A stretch of DNA of 64,000 nt from Eledone cirrhosa (lineage: Eukaryota), in NCBI GenBank assembly GCA_964016885.1, contig OZ024740.1, positions 374,976,001 to 375,040,000 on the forward strand. Reading direction: 5' to 3'. Of this stretch, positions 8,558 through 59,830 are shown in pieces; position 1 is the first letter of the stretch, and each line of letters begins with the position of its first letter. The notes under the pieces are model-generated. The model saw nothing but the letters and a program-made list of their open reading frames with translations, was not told where the DNA came from and ran no database searches. Made by a program: the position numbers and the translations under genes.

Positions 8558-8636
8558 TATCTCTACCATGGTTTCATCCGTATTTTTAGACATCCAATTA
8601 ATAGGAATGTCTTGAGTTAGGATTCATCAGGAGACA
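8558..8636 (-). ncRNA. Type I hammerhead ribozyme motif with palindromic helix III
   Basis: TGTCTC CTGATGA ATCC...[AGACATTCC-tattaatt-GGATGTCT]...GGAT GAAA CCATGG TA|GAGATA. All three helices pair; GUA triplet; helix III is the palindrome ACCATGGT. Confidence 0.8.
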
Positions 8637-19807: not shown

Positions 19808-20634
19808 ATGATTGACCTCGATGTCACGTGATTGATTCTTTTTGAATTTGCCACCGACGCAGTAGGCAGTGATTTTCTCAATGGCTAGGAATTCAGTCCA
19901 CGCTTTGCTATTTTCTATCCACTGAATTATTTTTGTATAAGTTTCCAGAGTCCACGCTTTGCCTGGATACTTAGCTGAGAATAAACTTCCCAGACGACGA
20001 AATGCTTCTCAATATTTTCTTCGGAACATATATTTATTCCATTTCAGAAACTAATTAGTTGGGAGTGAAATTTTAGTAAGTAAGTTAATTTTATAATTTT
20101 CTTATTTTACGTCTCTCATATTATTGTTCTGCAACCCCATGCATTGAACCACAAAGTTACTAAGACAAAACTTATATATTTGCTAGCATGATATGCATCT
20201 GTATGTATATATATGTTACTAGATATTAATTCTTTATAATTATCTCCAAATTATTTGTCGAGCAATATTGGCCAAGACTGCTGCTATGGTAGCAGGCAGG
20301 CCGCTGTCTTCTTAACAAACCACTTTCCACTGATTGACTTCGATGTCACGTGATTGATTCTTTTTGAATTTGCCACCGACGCAGTAGGCAGTGTTTTCTC
20401 AATGGCTAGGAATTCAGTCCACGCTTTGCTATTTTCTATCCACTGAATTATTTTTGTATAAGTTTCCAGAGTCCACGCTTTGCCTGGATACTTAGCTGAG
20501 AATAAACTTCCCTGACGACGAAATGCTTCTCAATATTTTCTTCGGAAAGTATATTTATTCCATTTCAGAAACTAATTAGTTGGGAGTGAAATTTTAGTAA
20601 GTAAGTTAATTTTATAATTTTCTTATTTTACGTC
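19808..20634 (+). mobile_element. ~521-bp tandem non-coding HHR repeat (retrozyme-like family A), about 1.6 units
   Basis: Direct repeat with period 521 (19985 vs 20506), one HHR per unit, flanked by TA tracts, no ORF. Confidence 0.8.
20506..20587 (+). ncRNA. Family A type I hammerhead, intact (the sister copy at 19985-20066 has a core mutation, CAGACGA)
   Basis: ACTTCC CTGACGA CGAAATG...[ATTTTC-TTCG-GAAAGT]...CATTTCA GAAA CTAATTAG TT|GGGAGT. Confidence 0.85.
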
Positions 20635-20743
20635 ACTTATATATATATATAGCGAAGGAAAAGTGGTAAGGAACCAGGTGGACCATAACGCACCAAAGTA
20701 CTCAATACTTAGGGTAGTAGAGTGGGTAATAGGAGTAAGTAAG

Positions 20744-20838
20744 ACCCCGACGGCTGAGCTCAAGCCGTTTCGACGGCTAATTCTGTACTGAATGAAAAAT
20801 CAGTTCTGGTATTTAAATAGCCGAACTTGTCAAGGGGC
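20744..20838 (-). ncRNA. PLE-1 pLTR hammerhead with U3-A8 core variant (second copy at 24321-24415)
   Basis: GCCCC TTGACAA GttCGGCTA...TAGCCGtC GAAA CGGCT-tgagctc-AGCCG TC|GGGGT; GUC triplet. Confidence 0.75.
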
Positions 20839-21174
20839 AATTCCATATATGGTCAAAGAGATAATCACCAGGATTGGTCATCCCACAAGGTAGTAGTAAT
20901 TCAGCGATGGCAGGTTGGTGGGGGAGGTAGCCAAACGTGCCAGTAGGAGAAAAGGGGAGAGGGGGCGGAGTAGACCCATTCATGCGTTGGTGGTGCCAGC
21001 TACAGCTGGGTGTGAGGTCAAAGAGGACGCCGGGGAGGGGGAGGAGGTCAAAACGGTAAGTAGAACGATGAAAATGTAAAACTGTAAAAGGTACTGAGAG
21101 AGAAAAGAAATATAAGCAGAATCTGGTTACTAAGACTTAATTCTCTCGCTATTGCTAGGCTGAAGAAATGCATA

Positions 21175-21390
21175 AATAAGTAAATAAGAAATACATAAAT
21201 AATATTCCACATAAGTAAATAAGAAATACAAAAATAATATTCCACATAAGTAAATAAGAAAAACATAAAGAATATTCCACATAAGAAAATAAGAAATATG
21301 TAAATAATATTCCACATAAGTAAATAAGAAATACATAAGTAATATTCCACATAAGTAAATAAGAAATACGTAAATGATATTCCACAAGAA
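21175..21390. repeat. 35-bp minisatellite (~6 copies) in the PLE-1 3' UTR
   Basis: atattccac recurs at 21202, 21237, 21272, 21307, 21342 and 21377. Confidence 0.92.
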
Positions 21391-21977
21391 AAACATAAAT
21401 GAGTAAATAAACAAATAAGTGAGTAAAAGGATGGATAGATAGATTTAAAAAAAATATATATATATATATATATATATAATGTAGTATAAAAAAAATAAGA
21501 AAACAAATGATAATGATAGAAAAAAAAACCTAGGTGTGACGGAGATAAAGGGACCCTTATGCGGGTATAAGTGCGTGTATCGTACGGTGACGGGTCAACA
21601 GAGAGGGGGGGTCGGAATACTACAGAGACCACCACGAAAAAAAAAATAAATAACGGTTTCTACCCCAAACACCGGGCCAGCAACCACCCAGTGCAGGAAA
21701 GTAGACTAGTACGAGAATATAATTCAGGGTCCCGCAAAAAAATACTGGTGCTAACTCTAAGGTTACCGCCACGAAACAAAATGTCTTATACAAGCTACAT
21801 GGAAAGTCGTACGAATTAAAAATAAAGAACGGAAAATTAATACAGGAAAAAGGGAGAAAAGGGAAAAAGGGAAAAAGAAGAAAGAGATACTGGATCGATA
21901 AAAAAAGGTGTAAAAGAAGATCTTACGTCTCCATAGGCAAGCAGGGGTTACCCATTACAAAATAGGCATGTGGGGTG

Positions 21978-24150
21978 TTATAGGCTACCCCCCGGGTCAT
22001 TATGGGGTTTGAGGGCGAGGTAAGTCCTACGTAATAGGTGTTTACATGCAGTAACCAGTTCATCTTTCTTGTTAAGGAGTTGGTCCGTCGAAAACAACAT
22101 TTGTAATGTTTCCTCCGAGCATAAATTGCACGGACGGCGTCCCCCCGTGTAGGAGTTGGCTCTGGATAGTAATTTCCAAGTGAGATCATAGTTGATGTTG
22201 TTGTCCTTGAGGTCCCATATGTGGCCCGAATGTGTAGTGGCGTGACGCCGGGCCGGGTTTCGGAAGGTATGTCTGTGTTGGTATAGCCGGGTCTTGAAGT
22301 CGCATGCGGTCAATCCTATATAAGCTTTGTTGGAGGTGTCCGTGCTCACGTTGCACTGGTAGATCACATTACGGTCTCTGCATCTGTTGTCGAGGGGGCA
22401 ACTTGATCTATCAGGACAGTTGCACCACCTGGTCGGCTCTCCACTGCTATTTGGGTTGTTTCTTCCATCGGGGTTGAGTTTTTTGTTGTTGGAGGAGACG
22501 ATGTTTTGTGCGAAGTTAGGTGTAGTGCTGTAAGAGAGTTTGATGGTATTTTTGTTAATTATGTTGTGGTAGCGGTGTTGTGGTGGGAAGTGTTTTTTCC
22601 ATGAGCCTAAAGAAAATGTTCCCGATGGGAGTTGTCACCTCAGCGTTGTGGGGAGGATTGAACAATGTTACATTTCGTGAGCGGCGGTGTCGCCTGCTGG
22701 TTCCGCTAATGGGAGCTGGACAGTAGGATATTTCCTCCCGGAAACCACTCCGCTTGAGGGCCTGGTTGTAGTAAGGCGCGTGTTCATCGAATATCCTCTC
22801 ATTAGCTGACAAACGGGATATACGGAGGGAGATGTTTTTGACCAGGTTGTTGGTGATATTCTTGGGATGGTTAGATCGGCGGTGGATGTAGTGCAGGTTG
22901 TCATTGGGTTTCCTGTATGGGTAGTACAGGTCATTGTTGAGATCGAGGGTAACGTCCAGGAAATTAACTCGGGTCAGGGACGTCTGTAGGGTTATTTAAA
23001 ATCCCCAGTCGCGGAAGAAGCTGATTAATTGTTTACGGACCCGGTCTGTACTACTGGCGTTGTACCCTTTACGGGTAAGGAGCCCATCATCACGGTACAA
23101 TCCACCACCAAAAGCCGGAAACATATCGGTGAGTTTGGCTATCAGGAATAATCCTATAAGATCTGTGACCTCCGCCGAGTCCGTAGCGCCCATGCTGACG
23201 TCGAAGGGTGAGTCGGGAGCTCTTTTTATCCATTTGGAGTTGTCAAAGAGTAAGACTGTCTTCCTGGCGTGGAGGATGATTTTTCTTTCCTGGTCGGTGA
23301 TGGGCACAAGTGCTTCGGCGAAGTCCAAGGCGGCAGTGAGTAGCGGTAAGGTGATTGAAGCGTAGTAGCTCTCTATGTCGAACTGGATAAATTTAGTGTC
23401 TCGTTTATCCTCCAAATTGCTGAACCATGAGACAACTTCCTGGGTGTTAATCCATAGGCTAAGTCGGGCGTGTTGCTTGACTTTAGGTCTCACGCGGTCT
23501 AGGATTTTTTTGCTGATTCTCCCTATGTCGGACTTTGTTGGATTTATAAGCCTGATAGATGGTTTACGGTCGAAATCAGATTTGTGGTCCTTCAGTGTGA
23601 AGTAGGGTGTCCGTGGGTCTAGGGGTTCGGTGCGGTCGGCGACCCCGAGGCTAGGGGTAATTTGTTGTCCATCTCGATTAATGTCCTCGAGGCATGAGTG
23701 GTTGGCCTTTTTATAGGTGGAGTTTAGACTGTTCCTGATCAGTGTGTGGTATCTGTCTGGGTTGACAAAGTATAGGTTCCCAGTTTTATCCTAATGCGCC
23801 ATGATGTCATTGGTGTTATCATACTCTGTTTCAGTTGCTACGGAGTTTTTGTAGGAATCGGTTGTGTCTGGGTTTGAATGTAAGGTTCTTGACCAGTTGG
23901 AAGAGGTCATTCTCGAAGGGTGAGAGCAAAGGGTTCGGAGGGGGAGATTTGTAGGTAATAAATCCGAATCTCCCCTTGGTATCGAAGTCCTGAATGTCGC
24001 AGAATCTGTCGTAGAAAAAAGTTCTCCATCTAAGTCTTTTCGCAAATAGGTCGATTTTTTGCGTGAGCATCCGAAGGTAAAGTTTTTTCGGTGGGATTGG
24101 GATGTTCTTGGTAGAGAAGTCGATATTGTGTTTTCGGATGGTGCGGGTGC
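21978..24150 (-). pseudogene. PLE-1 RT + GIY-YIG endonuclease ORF, interrupted by stops and frameshifts
   Basis: FSTKNIPIP, DKTGNLY, QFDIESYY, MGATDSAEV, LYRDDGL, VNFLDVTL, CNC..CPL..C, IYQC..YIGLT..FKTRLYQH, WDLK, CNLC. Confidence 0.9.
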
Positions 24151-24593
24151 AACAAAATGAGCTCGGCGGAAACGGATACGGCGTGGTAAGGTCGGATAGT
24201 GCTCTACTACGGGGATAGGAGCTAGATAGCGAAGGAAAAGTGGTAAGGAACCAGGTGGACCATAACGCACCAAAGTACTCAATACTTAGGGTAGTAGAGT
24301 GGGTAATAGGAGTAAGTAAGACCCCGAAGGCTGAGCTCAAGCCGTTTCGACGGCTAATTCTATACTGAATGAAAAATCAGTTCTGGTATTTAAATAGCCG
24401 AACTTGTCAAGGGACAATTCCATATATGGTCAAAGAGAAAATCACCAGGATTGGTCATACCACAAGGTAGTAGAAATTCAGCGATGGCAGGTTGGTGGGG
24501 GAGGTAGCCAAACCTGCCAGTAGGAGAAAAGGGGAGAGGAGCGGAGTAGACCCATTCATGCGTTGGTAGTGCCAGCTACAGCTGGGTGTGAGG

Positions 24594-25380
24594 TCCAACT
24601 AATTAGTTTCTGCAATGGGATAAAGACAGTTACGTAATCTAACTGTCGAGAATTCATTGCGTCATCAGGTAGTCTATTCTCAGCTAAGTCTCCAGGCAAT
24701 GCGCGGACACTGGCGGCTCATATAAAAATAATAATAATTCGGTAGATGGAACAGCTAGCGAGGACTAAATTCCATGCACTGAAATCCTCACTGCTTCTAG
24801 TCAAATGGCCGATTCTAAAGAATCAATCACGTGACACAGAGGCTAGTCAGAAGGAATGGGATGGTAAGATGACTGACGCCTACTAACACCCCCCAAAAAA
24901 AATTTTTTGGAAGTGGTTTTGGCAGGTTTGCTCGACAAATCAGTGATTTGGAGATAAATATAGATAATTTAATATATCAACTAACATAAGCGCACAGATG
25001 CACGCCTATGCCAGCAAATACACAGGTTATGTCATAGTTCCTAGGTGGTTCAATGCAGGAGGATGCAGAACAATAATATAAAAGACGTAAAATAAGAAAA
25101 TATTTTTAAAAAAAATTTTTTTTTTAAATTTTTTAAAAAAATTTTTAAAAAAAATTTGTTACTTACTTACTTAAATTTTCACTCCAACTAATTAGTTTCT
25201 GCAATGGGATAAAGACAGTTACGTAATCTTGCTGTCGAGAATTCATTGCGTCATCAGGGAGTCTATTCTCAGCTAAGTCTCCAGGCAATGCGCGGACACT
25301 GGCGGCTCATATAAAAATAATAATAATTCGGTAGATGGAACAGCTAGCGAGGACTAAATTCCATACACTGAAATCCTCAC
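24594..25380 (-). mobile_element. Family A partial tandem (second subfamily), HHRs at 24594-24673 and 25181-25262
   Basis: ACTCC CTGATGA CGCAATG...CATTGCA GAAA CTAATTAG TT|GGAGT; homologous to 19808-20634. Confidence 0.8.
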
Positions 25381-39319: not shown

Positions 39320-39462
39320 GTATGAAAATAGCCATGACCTCGACGGCTGACCTCCGGATCTAGCTGCCGAAACTCTTTTCATATTACCCACTCTACATCC
39401 CTAAGAGCTGAGTAGTGTGGTGCGTTATGGTCCACCTGGTATCTTACCACACCCTTTTTGCC
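39320..39462 (+). mobile_element. Solo tail related to the PLE-1 pLTR
   Basis: ggtgcgttatggtccacctgg is the reverse complement of 20674-20694. Confidence 0.75.
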
Positions 39463-46029: not shown

Positions 46030-46810
46030 TAAGGCAGGTAAAATTCCCGAGATCCATGGACGAGTTCTTTCCAGCGGTCTCTGTCCCTCATTACCGCTGC
46101 CATGTCCTGCGTCTCCAATAGACCAGTGTATGTCCTTAGGGCATCAACATACGTTAACCTTGGTCTTCTTCTTCTAGTGTGTCCATGTAGGGGCTCCCAA
46201 AGGAGCACTGAGTGCAATGTCAGCTCTGGATGTTGGTGAGCATGTCCAACCAACCTCAGTCTCCTCTGGACGAAAAAGGTATCGGATGCTCAATTTGCCG
46301 ACGACATAGTTTTGGTGACAAATACAGTGAAGGAGGTAGAGGAATTGATGCGGGAGGTTGAGCCTGTGTCGATGAGTGTGGGGCCGAGAATGAATGGGAC
46401 TAAAACAAAATATCTGGTAGAGAATGTTGAGAAGCCAGAGAGGATCACTAATGTAGGCGGGAAGCTGCTAGAATTGGTAGAGGGCTTCCTGTATTTGGGA
46501 GCAAAGATTGGGAATACGGAAGATGATGTGGTTGAGAGGAAGAGCAAGGCCTGGGCGGCGTGCCACAGCTTGAGATCCGTGTGGAAGTCGGACCTTCGTA
46601 GAGATCTGAAAATACGCCTCTTCATTGCTGTAGTGGTGTCTGTGCTGCTGTATGGGTCTGAGACTTGGACACTGACCAAGAAACTCACTCAGATGGTGGA
46701 TGGGTGCTACACGAGAATGCTGAGGATGGCTCTGAACATTAATCAGTATACACTGAGGATGAAAATCTCAGAGCTGTATGGGAGCATCCCAAGAGTCAGC
46801 TCAAAAGTGA
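46030..46810 (-). mobile_element. RTE-type LINE insertion with inverted 5' part (46030-46270 on -, 46271-46810 on +)
   Basis: FADDIVL, FLYLG, LLYGSETWTLTK; the two parts are contiguous in the uninverted copy at 56111-56668. Confidence 0.85.
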
Positions 46811-46815
46811 TATAT

Positions 46816-47272
<457 letters not shown>

Positions 47273-48054: not shown

Positions 48055-49960
48055 TGGGATAACAAATTATCGTTATTGGTAATTCAGTTAGACGTTGTGA
48101 GTACTCGACGTCGTGAATAGTTTTAACGTACGGCTTTGTTTGACTCAACAAGATGCTTCCATAGTTATGCAGCGAGTTCGCGGTAATTTCTATGCAGGTT
48201 ATACTTGGAGAAATTGTAGTTAAAGAATGAAGAGTAACATGGTTGGCTGTACAGTAAGGGCTTTATTTAGGGTACTGACAATTCTTTCGTTCATCAGGTG
48301 AGTATAGAGTTCACTAATCACTTGAGGGTGCATCATTCGATCTCCAATACATTATTTACCGTTGGTCAACACAACAGCGTACGTAGATATGAAAGTAAGT
48401 CACTCGAAGCAAGATTTATATAGAAAAATAGCGTATAATCAAGACAATAACATCAATAATAAAATAGCGTATAATCAAAACAAAAACATCAATAATAAAA
48501 CGTATAGTAAATAGGTAGAGAAGTTACAGATGTCAAAAGTAAAAAGTAAAATATAAGATAGGGTACATTAAAAAATTAGAAAATGAGAAAATAGAAAAGA
48601 GAAATAAATAAATAAGTGAGAGCGTGTAAGTAGATCTTAGTAGTTTTTGAGTAAGTGTTCTTATAAGCATTCGTTGGAGGGTTTAGTGCTAACATGAGAA
48701 ACCAGATTCGAGATGTACATACATACGTGTAGAGGGTCCGATAAATGAAAAGACAATACATTAGAGATTAATTAGTGGATACATGTATGATATTTATGGG
48801 CTAGGGATGACGGAATATTTGATAAACGCTTGTTGTAAATGTTTTGCTGATTGTTCTATCTCAATGGGGTTGATGCTGTTTCAGGGAGAGTTTGTGAAAG
48901 AAATGTTTAGAGATTTATGATCCAATGACCAGTTGGCCGTTTGATAACTAATAGCAATGCGATGGTGTGTATTCTATATGTTAAAATCTAGGTGGTTTCG
49001 TACTAATTTAGGGATTGCCGGTTCAAATCATGGTAATTTGAAGTTTGTGAATCTTGTATCTATTTTATGCTTATAGATATTTTATGCCTATAGATATTTC
49101 TATTTTGCTGTTAAGCAGCATCCCATCGTACCTTAAGATATGTAGTAGTTCTAAATTACAAAGCCCGAGGTGGGACATACCGTTGCTGTAGGCTTTTGCT
49201 AGCGATAATTTTGACCAGCTAATCTTATATTCTAGGTTTTTGTCCTTAAGCTGCCAGATTTTATTGGCGAGCGTCGTAGAGTTCTCCAGTGCACGGTTCT
49301 ACATGGAGTGTCTGTGTACATACCACCTTTTCTTGAACTCCCCAGCCGTGGAACCTATGTAGTGCTAAGTCGAATTGCCTGAATTCACGGTACACAGGTA
49401 TACCATAATCGAATCCAGGCATCTATTTCGTAGTGGGCACTTTCCGGTAGATGGCAATTACAATTTCAGGTTTTATGTTGTACAGGTTCATCGTTGCGGT
49501 TTTGTAAGTTGTTGTGGCTGGGTTGTGATTTAGGTCTATTAATGCTTTGTTGTGATGCGTTCTGATGCGTTTGTGGTTGTGATGTTGTTACTTGTTGGTG
49601 TTTTGTATTTGGTGCTATCGTACGTGTTGGTTGGTTAATTTATTTAGAGATATGTTTGTAGTTGATCTTGCGTATGTGCGATTCTTTGTTGGCTGCAGTA
49701 GAGTAGGAAGGTTGTATAGTTGTTTCTATTGAAGATTTTATGGTATTTGTGTAGTGTAGGGAAGTGCTTATCTTTTAGTTTAAAGAATGTAGATGGTAGT
49801 TTAGTTTGTAGAGGAGTTGAATATTGGATTGAACCATAAGTACCTTCTATCTCTGAATATTCTATAGTTTGTGTGGGTCCGCATAGGAAGACTAACTCAA
49901 GAACTACTTACAGGCTCTCACTTATTTATTTATTTAAATTTTCCATTTTCTTATTTTTTA
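48055..49960 (-). mobile_element. Old, degraded PLE-3 3' half (GIY-YIG plus tail) with a short 5' inversion (49905-49960 vs 48570-48625)
   Basis: KCPLRNRCLDSIMVYLC..YIGSTAGEFKKRWYVH..STTLANKIWQLK; minimal HHR remnant at 48273-48304. Confidence 0.8.
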
Positions 49961-50767: not shown

Positions 50768-51123
50768 TCATATATACATAATATATATCACGATAAATCA
50801 ACGGATCCATAGACTCTCTAGTGTGTTATCTTTTCATCATATTGCGTTATAAAGGGCTCGGGATTCCTTCTCCTTTGAGCACATTACAGACAGGGAATAG
50901 CGAGAGTCTATGGTTCCGTTAATTTATCGTAATATTTCGCTCCTTATAATTTCGCTCTTTGGTTGAGCACACTTCTCTGTGTGCTTTGGGCTGCCCTTTA
51001 TAGCAGCTTCTTCCTCAGAGACCACTGGTTACTGCGCTAGACACGCTGTGAATTCTCTCTCCCACGTGTGGCTGGACGGTCGCTTTAGATTCTCTTAGTG
51101 TTGTCTGAATTGTATAGCCTTAC

Positions 51124-51202
51124 ACACGCTGATGAACCATGGACATATCATTTCTGTCAACAACTTATTTGGTGAAACAGATCTTTTTGGAGTTGTACGT
51201 GT
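51124..51202 (+). ncRNA. Type I hammerhead ribozyme motif
   Basis: ACACG CTGATGA ACCA...TGGT GAAA CAG...TTG TA|CGTGT; all three helices pair; GUA triplet. Confidence 0.75.
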
Positions 51203-51313
51203 CATACGGTCCAATAGACTTTTGTTAGCAATATTAAGTTCTCCACGCTTTTGTATATCTCCAATACCATTTATGGAAACAGCTAGATGATATAAAACGG
51301 AGTATTCGTATCA

Positions 51314-57074: not shown

Positions 57075-57867
57075 GACGTAAATAAGAAAGTTATGAAAAT
57101 TGACTTACTTACTAAAATTTCACTCCAACTAATTAGTTTCTGTAAGGGGATAAATATAGTTACGTAATAACTATAGAGAAGCCTTACGTCATCAGGGAGT
57201 CTATTCTCAGCTAAGTTTCCAGGCAATGCGGGGACACTGGGAACTTATATAAAAATAATTCTGTGGATGGAAAAAGCGAGCGGGGCTAGATTCCAAGCCA
57301 TTGAAAAATTCACTGCCTTCTTGGTCAAGTGGCAAATACAAAAGAATCAATCACGTGACACTGAGGTTAACCAGCTTGGAGTGGGGGTGCTATTAAGACA
57401 GAGCCTAGCTACTACTATCAGTCACATTACGAATTTGGCAAATTTTGCTCAACAAATAATTTGGAGATAATTATAAAGAATTAATATATCTACCGACATA
57501 TGTATACAGATGCATACCTATGCTAGCAGATATATATGTTTTGTCTTAGTAACTCTGTGGTTATATGCAGGGGAATGCAGAACAATTATATGAAAGACGT
57601 AAATAAGAAAGTTATGAAAATTGACTTACTTACTAAAATTTCACTCCAACTAATTAGTTTCTGTAAGAGGATAAATATAGTTACGTAATAAACTAATTAG
57701 TTGGAGTGAAATTTTAGTAAGTAAATTTTCATAACTTTCTTATTTACGTCTTTCATATAATTGTTCTGCATTCCCCTGCATAGAACCACAAAGTTACTAA
57801 GACAAAACATATATATCTGCTAGCATAGGTGTGCATCTGTATACATATGTCGGTAGATATATTAATT

Positions 57868-58024: not shown

Positions 58025-58559
<535 letters not shown>

Positions 58560-59679: not shown

Positions 59680-59825
59680 CGAAGGAAATGTGGTAAGGAA
59701 CCAGGTGGACCATAACGCACCAAAGTACTCAATACTTAGGGTGGTAGAGTGGGTAATAGGAACGAGTAGGACCCAGAATTAGCCGTCGAAACGGCTTGAG
59801 CTCAGCCGTCAGGGTCCTACACGTT

Positions 59826-59830
<5 letters not shown>
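59679..59830. mobile_element. PLE-1-family tail (minus, 59679-59774) fused to an inverted HHR 3' half (plus, 59775-59830); diverged relative at ~59890-60060
   Basis: Near-identity to the PLE-1 pLTR sequence in both orientations. Confidence 0.85.

Follow-up and report, generated by a model that had tools for sequence, protein, structure and literature searches.

Hammerhead ribozymes are present in the pseudo-long terminal repeats (pLTRs) of all of the Penelope-like elements examined by Cervera and de la Peña (2014, PMC4209133). The tertiary C3-G8 pair of the hammerhead core, which the initial annotation of the DNA described here had invoked, is established (PMC3884650, with reference to Martick and Scott 2006 and to two biochemical studies). 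In the Anolis element, the C3G and G8C single mutants lose cleavage and the double mutant rescues it (Frangieh et al. 2024, PMC11167929). Cervera and de la Peña also describe U3-A8, as covarying positions in the catalytic core, in the Penelope-element hammerheads of Schistosoma mansoni, with about 1,300 hits. Here, we analyzed a 64,000-nucleotide stretch of the Eledone cirrhosa genome (contig OZ024740.1, positions 374,976,001 to 375,040,000; hereafter called “the window”), the minus strand of which carries a 3.95-kb Penelope-like element with two pLTRs of 377 bp. Both pLTRs contain a hammerhead-type motif with U and A at positions 3 and 8. With a probability of about 0.6, we consider this motif to be the element's own type-I hammerhead, with U3/A8 in place of C3/G8, and predicted to cut the element transcript after the GUC triplet (20749/20748). 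A U3-A8 hammerhead in a Penelope-element pLTR is already in print (PMC4209133), and the case in the window is ordinary. As far as our literature searches reach, the only part that goes beyond the published work is the genome-wide mixture of U-A, C·A, and U·G subfamilies on one scaffold; no paper combining C3U and G8A with the hammerhead was found, and the supplementary lists of PMC4209133 and PMC8557442 may hold similar motifs.

The motif in the 3′ pLTR runs from 20838 to 20744 on the minus strand, and is supported by sequence reading, a descriptor match, and a constrained fold. The 5′ strand of helix I (GCCCC, 20838–20834) leads into the core UUGACAA (20833–20827, with U3 at 20833 and A8 at 20828). 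Helix II follows (20826–20772), in which the G10.1-C11.1 pair, a U·U mismatch, and a bulged U precede the CGGCUA/UAGCCG stem around a 38-nt insert. After GAAA (20771–20768), helix III (ACGGCU/AGCCGU, 20768–20750) forms 6 bp with the 7-nt loop UGAGCUC, and the 3′ strand of helix I (GGGGU, 20748–20744) closes the motif. The cleavage site proposed in the initial annotation, GUC/GGGGU, coincides with the one predicted by hammerhead numbering only, between C17 (20749) and G1.1 (20748). The canonical core box is C3 U4 G5 A6 N7 G8 A9; positions 3 and 8 differ from it, while U4, G5, A6, and A9 are kept. The replacement of CUGANGA by UUGACAA in both pLTRs, which the annotation had reported, was read directly on the minus strand, and U3 and A8 can form a Watson-Crick pair in both copies. 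In addition, G12 A13 A14, the A15.1-U16.1 pair (U16.1 at 20750), and the N-U-H triplet GUC are present in the 3′ pLTR motif. The architecture is that of type I, with an open-ended helix I of 5 bp, a helix II of 1 + 6 bp with the mismatch and the bulge, and a helix III of 6 bp, the whole stretch of which forms the near-palindrome GGCUUGAGCUCAGCC. The annotation had described all three helices as paired and the GUC as present; the helices and the triplet are there, but helix II is interrupted by the mismatch and bulge near the core.

The motif in the 5′ pLTR (24415–24321, minus strand) differs from the 3′ pLTR copy by private changes. The change of G16.2 to U yields UUC and a C·U mismatch (15.2-16.2) in helix III, both of which the annotation had noted; it had passed over a C-to-U change in helix I (GUCCC) and one change in the helix II insert. 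Neither of the helix changes occurs in the 39 other sampled copies, and the 3′ pLTR motif is the commonest form in the sample, with an exact match over 102 nt in 21 of the 39 full-length copies.

In order to assess the motif against chance, we used a descriptor with helix I of at least 4 bp, helix II of at least 5 bp, helix III of at least 4 bp, GAAA, and UH. When all 16 letter pairs were allowed at positions 3 and 8 on both strands of the window (128 kb), the descriptor matched once, at the 3′ pLTR motif. When the window was dinucleotide-shuffled 40 times, the descriptor for U-A or C-G found no match, and 2,000 shuffles of the pLTR likewise gave none. The fold constrained to the hammerhead has an energy of −26.4 kcal/mol, as compared to −27.7 kcal/mol for the free minimum-energy fold, a gap of 1.3 kcal/mol.

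Related elements were collected from metagenome contigs, using the alignment of the reverse transcriptase (RT) piece of the element with nine homologues as the query, and 78 loci (253,395 nt) were obtained, with the RT on the plus strand. In these loci, the descriptor matched C3-G8 hammerheads 31 times in the sense direction versus 3 times in antisense, and the other letter pairs 0–2 times each; the lone sense U-A match (L072) is AT-rich, off-place, and doubtful. The canonical cleavage site lies 484–504 nt upstream of the RT match in 11 loci. With looser settings, L095 and L099 (both at 497 nt) and L070 (518 nt) were recovered as well, along with the outliers L057 (672 nt) and L061 (716 nt); in the scanned regions of most of the remaining loci this pass found no hammerhead-like motif, although the descriptor may miss some. 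The corresponding distance in the window is 24326 − 23790 = 536 nt, and the predicted site thus falls where related elements have canonical hammerheads. The motifs of the relatives have a helix I of 4–5 bp, a helix II of 4–10 bp, and mostly GUA, and their helix III consists of a short ACAGNNCUGU-type palindrome that leaves no space for a loop. In the alignment of 23 relatives, 93.7% of the cells are paired, as compared to 65.7% in shuffles, and both sides vary in 10 of the 12 pairs; because a pairing descriptor had been used to select the rows, these figures overstate the independent support. The relatives differ from the window element in their core (CUGANGA as against UUGACAA), in their helix III, which is a short palindrome and not as long as that of the window element, in their triplet (mostly GUA as against GUC), and in their unit length (about 2.4 kb as against 3.58 kb). 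One relative (L031) has CUGAUAA (C3 and A8) with weak helices about 498 nt upstream of the RT match, and may be an A8 variant outside the E. cirrhosa genome.

The E. cirrhosa genome (3.0 Gb searched) contains the motif in thousands of copies. On a common scaffold (the core, GNUCG, 28–58 nt, and CGAAACGGCUUSAGCUC), U3-A8 occurs in 4,611 copies, C3-A8 in 1,384, U3-G8 in 33, and C3-G8 in 10, the last picked by eye from 83 matches, the other 73 of which are chance CUGANGA words beside the mini-insertions described below. U3-A8, which the initial annotation had called a tolerated but uncommon natural variant, is indeed a natural variant, but it is the majority state here, in a family of more than 6,000 copies. 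In the subfamily of the window, the 18-mer GCCCC+UUGACAA+GUUCGG occurs 103 times and its C-G, C-A, and U-G versions 0 times each, counts that say only that this young subfamily is uniform. A sister subfamily with ACCCC (207 copies) has U-A in 99 of the first 100 listed, and its helix II insert has diverged while the stems and the core are unchanged. A pattern leaving the core unconstrained (UUACCCC, 7 free letters, and GNUCGGCUAU) matched 5,409 copies, the first 100 of which, counted by eye, have U3 in 75, C3 in 25, A8 in 100, UGA in 98, and A9 in 100. Position N7 varies in this sample (G, U, or A), as a hammerhead would predict. Accordingly, A8 is fixed, position 3 varies between U and C, and the covariation of the two positions is incomplete; whole subfamilies consequently carry an unpaired C3·A8. 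The covariation that the annotation had put forward as a test is seen between the family and its relatives, with 31 sense C-G matches versus one doubtful U-A match, but not within the sampled family, with its invariant A8.

A pattern for the 3′ half of the motif (CAGAAWUAGCC, followed by 8 free letters and GGCUUGAGCUC) matches 47,820 times in the genome, outnumbering the 5′ half (5,409 copies) about 8–9-fold. Of the first 100 listed 3′ halves, 87 retain GAAA, and the losses are scattered, 9 of them at G12, which lies within a CpG. Among 30 copies sampled by the last 103 nt of the pLTR (L109–L138), 26 are two-armed mini-insertions of about 210 bp. They consist of the reverse complement of p294 to about p230, followed by about p230 to p377, and contain only the 3′ half of the hammerhead; the axis lies at the imperfect palindrome AUUCAGUACAGAAU within the helix II insert. 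The mini-insertion in the window (59681–59830), located in (TA)n, has a long arm starting at p274/275, the predicted cut site, a single case that does not count as evidence. A look-up of the sequencing runs recorded as containing the pLTR gave no RNA run. In four contig sets of unknown kind, without molecule ends, the word depth is far higher over 20651–20786 than over the 5′ half of the motif, in line with the mini-insertions.

To order the states at positions 3 and 8, we compared 123 copies (120 fetched copies and 3 loci), a stratified and not random set with all 10 C-G, 13 of the 33 U-G, 40 of the 1,384 C-A, and 60 of the 4,611 U-A copies, giving 115 distinct rows. The helix I pairs are standard in 92–108 of these rows, and the 15.1-16.1 and 15.2-16.2 pairs in 112 each. 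Moreover, the parts that the search patterns left unfixed are retained: helix I ACCCC/GGGGU, the 3′ strand of helix III, and the GUC. Divergence between the subfamilies has affected the helix II insert and the flanks but has left the scaffold in place.

A weakly resolved tree of 116 columns, with positions 3 and 8 masked, has a backbone running from S7 (U·G) through S4/B (U-A) and S5 (C·A) to S1 (C·A), within which S1′, S3, and S2 (all U-A) are nested; the copy in the window falls in S3. The median pairwise differences are 10.4% in S7, 8.8% in S5, 8.6% in S4/B, and 6.1% in S1, and 3.5% in S3 with the window, 3.4% in S1′, and 2.6% in S2. Within clade Y, the C3·A8 subfamily S1 is therefore basal and older, and the nested U3-A8 subfamilies are younger (2.6–3.5%) and more numerous. 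In the old subfamily S7 (for example, L162, L164, L168, L169, L171, and L173), all 26 copies with its helix II insert signature have the U3·G8 wobble. A single split between U3 and C3 is rejected, as it costs 39.7 log-likelihood units (approximately unbiased test, p = 0.017), in a test for which evident single-copy mutants were dropped and which is weakened by the groups having been named after the tree had been seen, and with recombination between subfamilies possible. The metagenome relatives are too remote to provide a usable outgroup, and the direction of change was read solely from the nesting and the relative ages of the subfamilies.

From this arrangement, A8 appears to be old in the family, and the unpaired C3·A8 seems to have lasted through two subfamilies. 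U3 would then have restored the pair in the lineage of the youngest and most numerous subfamilies, and in at least one clade it looks like a later repair of the C3·A8 mismatch. For the scattered C-G copies, the simplest explanation is a single A-to-G change in a C·A copy. We tentatively propose, as a possibility rather than a probable history, a stepwise series at the 3-8 pair in one Penelope-element superfamily, from U·G (oldest) through U-A and the unpaired C·A (two older subfamilies with more than 1,300 copies) to U-A (youngest and most numerous). If the series is true, the ribozyme would be dispensable for transposition and yet repeatedly repaired, and cleavage would raise copying success in a graded way.

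How would such a motif act? The U3-A8 Watson-Crick pair would take over from the tertiary pair of C3 and G8, and the ribose of residue 8 and G12 would keep their positions for acid-base catalysis. In tandem or read-through transcripts, cutting at one pLTR after another would yield RNA of unit length, which, perhaps as circles, could be the template for the RT of the element. With its near-palindromic helix III, the RNA could fold as a monomer hairpin or pair as a dimer, as do other animal type-I hammerheads. The motif is very probably the homologue of the hammerhead of the element. For real self-cleavage, predicted from the sequence, the odds are about even; cutting is favored because the other catalytic letters are kept, the 3-8 pair is kept or restored, the scaffold is conserved as against the diverging insert, and the hammerhead fold is competitive.

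Several observations weigh against the proposal that the motif is a working hammerhead of the element. The U·U mismatch and the bulged U adjoin the G10.1-C11.1 pair, and free folding is no better than that of shuffles (z = −1.48 and −0.92). The motif is unmatched in Rfam at the gathering score and at E ≤ 10, and the covariance model R1, built from the alignment of the 23 canonical hammerheads of related elements and run unfiltered over the window, gave 34 matches at E ≤ 10, with the U3-A8 motif not among them; the initial annotation had correctly foreseen that standard searches would miss it. Within the family, the covariation is not significant (87.9% paired versus 87.7% in shuffles), as the helices are too invariant. 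None of the 30 copies sampled by the 3′ part starts at the cut site (p274), and the long arm of the 26 two-armed copies starts at p227–p255 (25 copies) or p270 (1 copy). The C·A subfamilies, with positions 3 and 8 unpaired, reached 1,384 copies, and thus proliferated without the need of a 3-8 pair. Finally, published Penelope-element hammerheads are described as cleaving poorly in vitro (PMC4209133), and in the Anolis element, cleavage depended on the protein, and insertion in vitro did not require cleavage (PMC11167929).

The missing Rfam and R1 matches and the weak folding scores would also be expected of a chance look-alike in an AT-rich repeat. This explanation is extremely improbable, and for practical purposes it is refuted by the shuffle controls, the single match over 16 letter pairs in 128 kb, and the place shared with the canonical hammerheads of the relatives, in addition to the retention of the motif in thousands of copies of several subfamilies. 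A doubtful but more serious alternative is a hammerhead-derived relic with little or no cleavage, in which G8 was lost in the ancestor of the family. In that case, the scaffold would simply have been inherited by young copies, or it would be kept because the folded RNA serves another step, such as RT binding or the joining of the two complementary DNA arms via palindromes. The A8 in 100 of 100 core-unbiased copies, the thousand and more copies with C3·A8, and a position 3 that flipped at least twice fit this alternative, as do the predominance of two-armed mini-insertions (26 of 30) with their axis at the imperfect palindrome in the helix II insert, the insertion without cleavage of the Anolis element in vitro (PMC11167929), and the Naiad elements, which are described as thriving without canonical hammerheads (PMC8557442). 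A relic, however, does not readily account for the other catalytic letters, the GUC, and the three helices being retained in subfamilies with differences of up to about 10% and with diverged helix II inserts, nor for the paired U3-A8 in the youngest and largest subfamilies; a random compensating pair is improbable, at 1 of 78 transition pairs among the 13 core positions by our own count. It is rather unlikely that an active hammerhead requires either the dimerization of two motifs or the binding of the element's protein, with single-copy RNA staying uncut. The near-palindrome of helix III (GGCUUGAGCUCAGCC) would permit such pairing, the short and loopless palindromes of the relatives (ACAGNNCUGU type) resemble the dimer design described in PMC4209133, and protein-dependent cleavage has been reported (PMC11167929); unlike the relatives, however, the motif in the window has a helix III of 6 bp with a 7-nt loop, which is able to close intramolecularly.

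Among the closest described systems are the minimal hammerheads of the Cercyon Penelope-like elements of S. mansoni (PMC4209133), which are likewise type-I hammerheads in the sense strand of the pLTR with U3-A8 for C3-G8. They, too, occur mostly as scattered truncated copies and inverted pairs. As described in that report, their helix III is minimal or absent, a dimer design, whereas the motif in the window has the 6-bp hairpin with its 7-nt loop and a 38-nt helix II insert with its own apical stem; the E. cirrhosa genome also holds C3·A8 (1,384 copies) and U3·G8 (one subfamily, 26 of 26 copies). The A. carolinensis Poseidon element PAc (PMC11167929) likewise has its hammerhead at the junction of the pLTR and the open reading frame (ORF). 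It belongs to another clade and has C3-G8, and the role of its 3-8 pair has been shown by mutants. Searches that require CUGANGA (Rfam, and RNAmotif descriptors such as ‘cuganga’) score the family as ribozyme-less, although in a single genome it counts more than 6,000 complete motifs and about 48,000 copies of the 3′ half, and such misses could feed claims that some Penelope-element lineages lack hammerheads. The coexisting U-A, C·A, and U·G subfamilies provide a natural mutant series for the role of the 3-8 pair in cleavage, and for that of cleavage in retrotransposition.

The element itself has a unit of 3,577 bp. Its pLTRs (20646–21022 and 24223–24598, both on the minus strand) are 96.8% identical over 377 nt, with 3.2 kb of broken coding sequence between them. 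Both are defined as direct repeats; the 3′ pLTR is abutted at its 3′ end by a (TA)n run (20634–20645), and the 5′ pLTR belongs to an incomplete tandem copy upstream, of which it forms the 3′ part. A single broken ORF (21978–24376, minus strand), traced through stop-to-stop ORFs, corresponds to homologues of about 700 aa. Its N-terminal piece lies in the frame 24376–23831, and the RT pieces (23790–22996 and 22995–22555) are bounded by the in-frame TAG (23793–23791) and TAA (22998–22996). The C-terminal piece (22634–21978), with the linker CNCPDRSSC and a GIY-YIG-like stretch, follows a frameshift. With two stops and at least two frameshifts, the copy in the window is dead. The 3′ untranslated region also holds six tandem copies of a 35-bp repeat (21141–21420, strand not assigned).

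Homologues of the 264-aa RT piece number 605; they are about 700 aa long and 40–54% identical to it, and some of them carry the precomputed labels PF26215, PF28514, and PF00078, labels that are not reproducible with the local Pfam library. Pfam gave no match for the four ORF pieces or for four homologues, and the sequence search of the PDB gave no match for the RT profile and only one chance-level match for the endonuclease piece. The Hydra clade is marked by the change of the DKG motif to DKT, the CxCX5C linker, a C-terminal GIY-YIG endonuclease that lacks the CCHH motif, and (TA)n insertion (Craig et al. 2021, PMC8557442). By direct reading of the translations, the RT piece at 23790–22996 starts with DKTGNLYF, which contains the DKT motif. 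CNCPDRSSC has the form CxCX5C and is followed by ...NVIYQC...AYIGLT... in the C-terminal piece; the GIY-YIG assignment was made by eye from the translation, in which Pfam finds no match. The (TA)n at the 3′ end (20634–20645) and the mini-insertion inside (TA)n (59681–59830) agree with the insertion preference of the clade. On account of the DKT, the linker, the GIY-YIG-like stretch, and the abutting (TA)n, the element is assigned to the Penelope-like elements with a C-terminal endonuclease, bearing these marks of the Hydra clade. Like the Hydra-clade elements of that report and the metagenome relatives, it has a type-I hammerhead motif upstream of the ORF and a helix I in the range of 4–5 bp; the Hydra-clade elements are described there as shorter than 3 kb with a canonical hammerhead, in contrast to the 3,577 bp and the U3-A8 core found here.

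Tandem repeats of about 520–590 bp each (19873–20642, plus strand; 24594–25380, minus strand) lie on either side of the element as inverted pairs. Every flanking unit carries a canonical hammerhead with CUGAUGA or CUGACGA, a helix II of about 50 nt, and GAAAC UAAUUAG UU/GG; the R1 model located these hammerheads at 20506–20587, 19985–20066, 25180–25263, and 24596–24669 (partial). The last minus-strand unit ends 1–3 nt from its own cut site (GUU/GGA), exactly at the start of the 5′ pLTR (24598), and at locus L020, the flanking repeat likewise lies upstream of a truncated pLTR. The junction of repeat and pLTR could have arisen by template switching onto a cleaved retrozyme-like RNA, or by co-transcription. 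Animal non-LTR retrozymes, the subject of Cervera and de la Peña (2020, PMC7229834), are described as short non-coding hammerhead repeats, thought to be mobilized by Penelope-like elements (Li et al. 2026, bioRxiv 10.64898/2026.07.22.740005). The flanking repeats and the two-armed mini-insertions of the family are retrozyme-like in general kind, whereas the motif in the window resides in an ORF-bearing, although broken, element of the autonomous type.

Further canonical hammerheads are scattered through the window. The one at 47079–47150 (plus strand) is a type-I hammerhead with CUGAUGA, a 7-bp helix I, and a CUAG palindrome in helix III; it scores 37 bits with Rfam Hammerhead_HH9, below the gathering score of 52, and 30.1 bits with R1 (E = 1.5e-6). 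R1 detected five more, at 8558–8636 (minus), 51123–51203 (plus), 57121–57201 (minus), 58075–58131 (minus), and 58360–58416 (plus), with E values from 1e-5 to 0.03. All five are missed by Rfam at the gathering score, and the one at 57121–57201 is of the flanking-repeat kind. A degraded second Penelope-like endonuclease fragment lies at 49074–49802 (minus strand), with 33% identity to the C-terminal piece (tblastn, E = 2e-29) and no long open frame. An 86%-identical fragment of the part of the pLTR downstream of the cut site is located at 39379–39450, beside (TA)n. The open frame at 46240–46917 (plus strand), which has the look of a reverse transcriptase of the long interspersed nuclear element type (...FADDIVLV...) and ends in (TA)n, is unrelated to the Penelope-like element.

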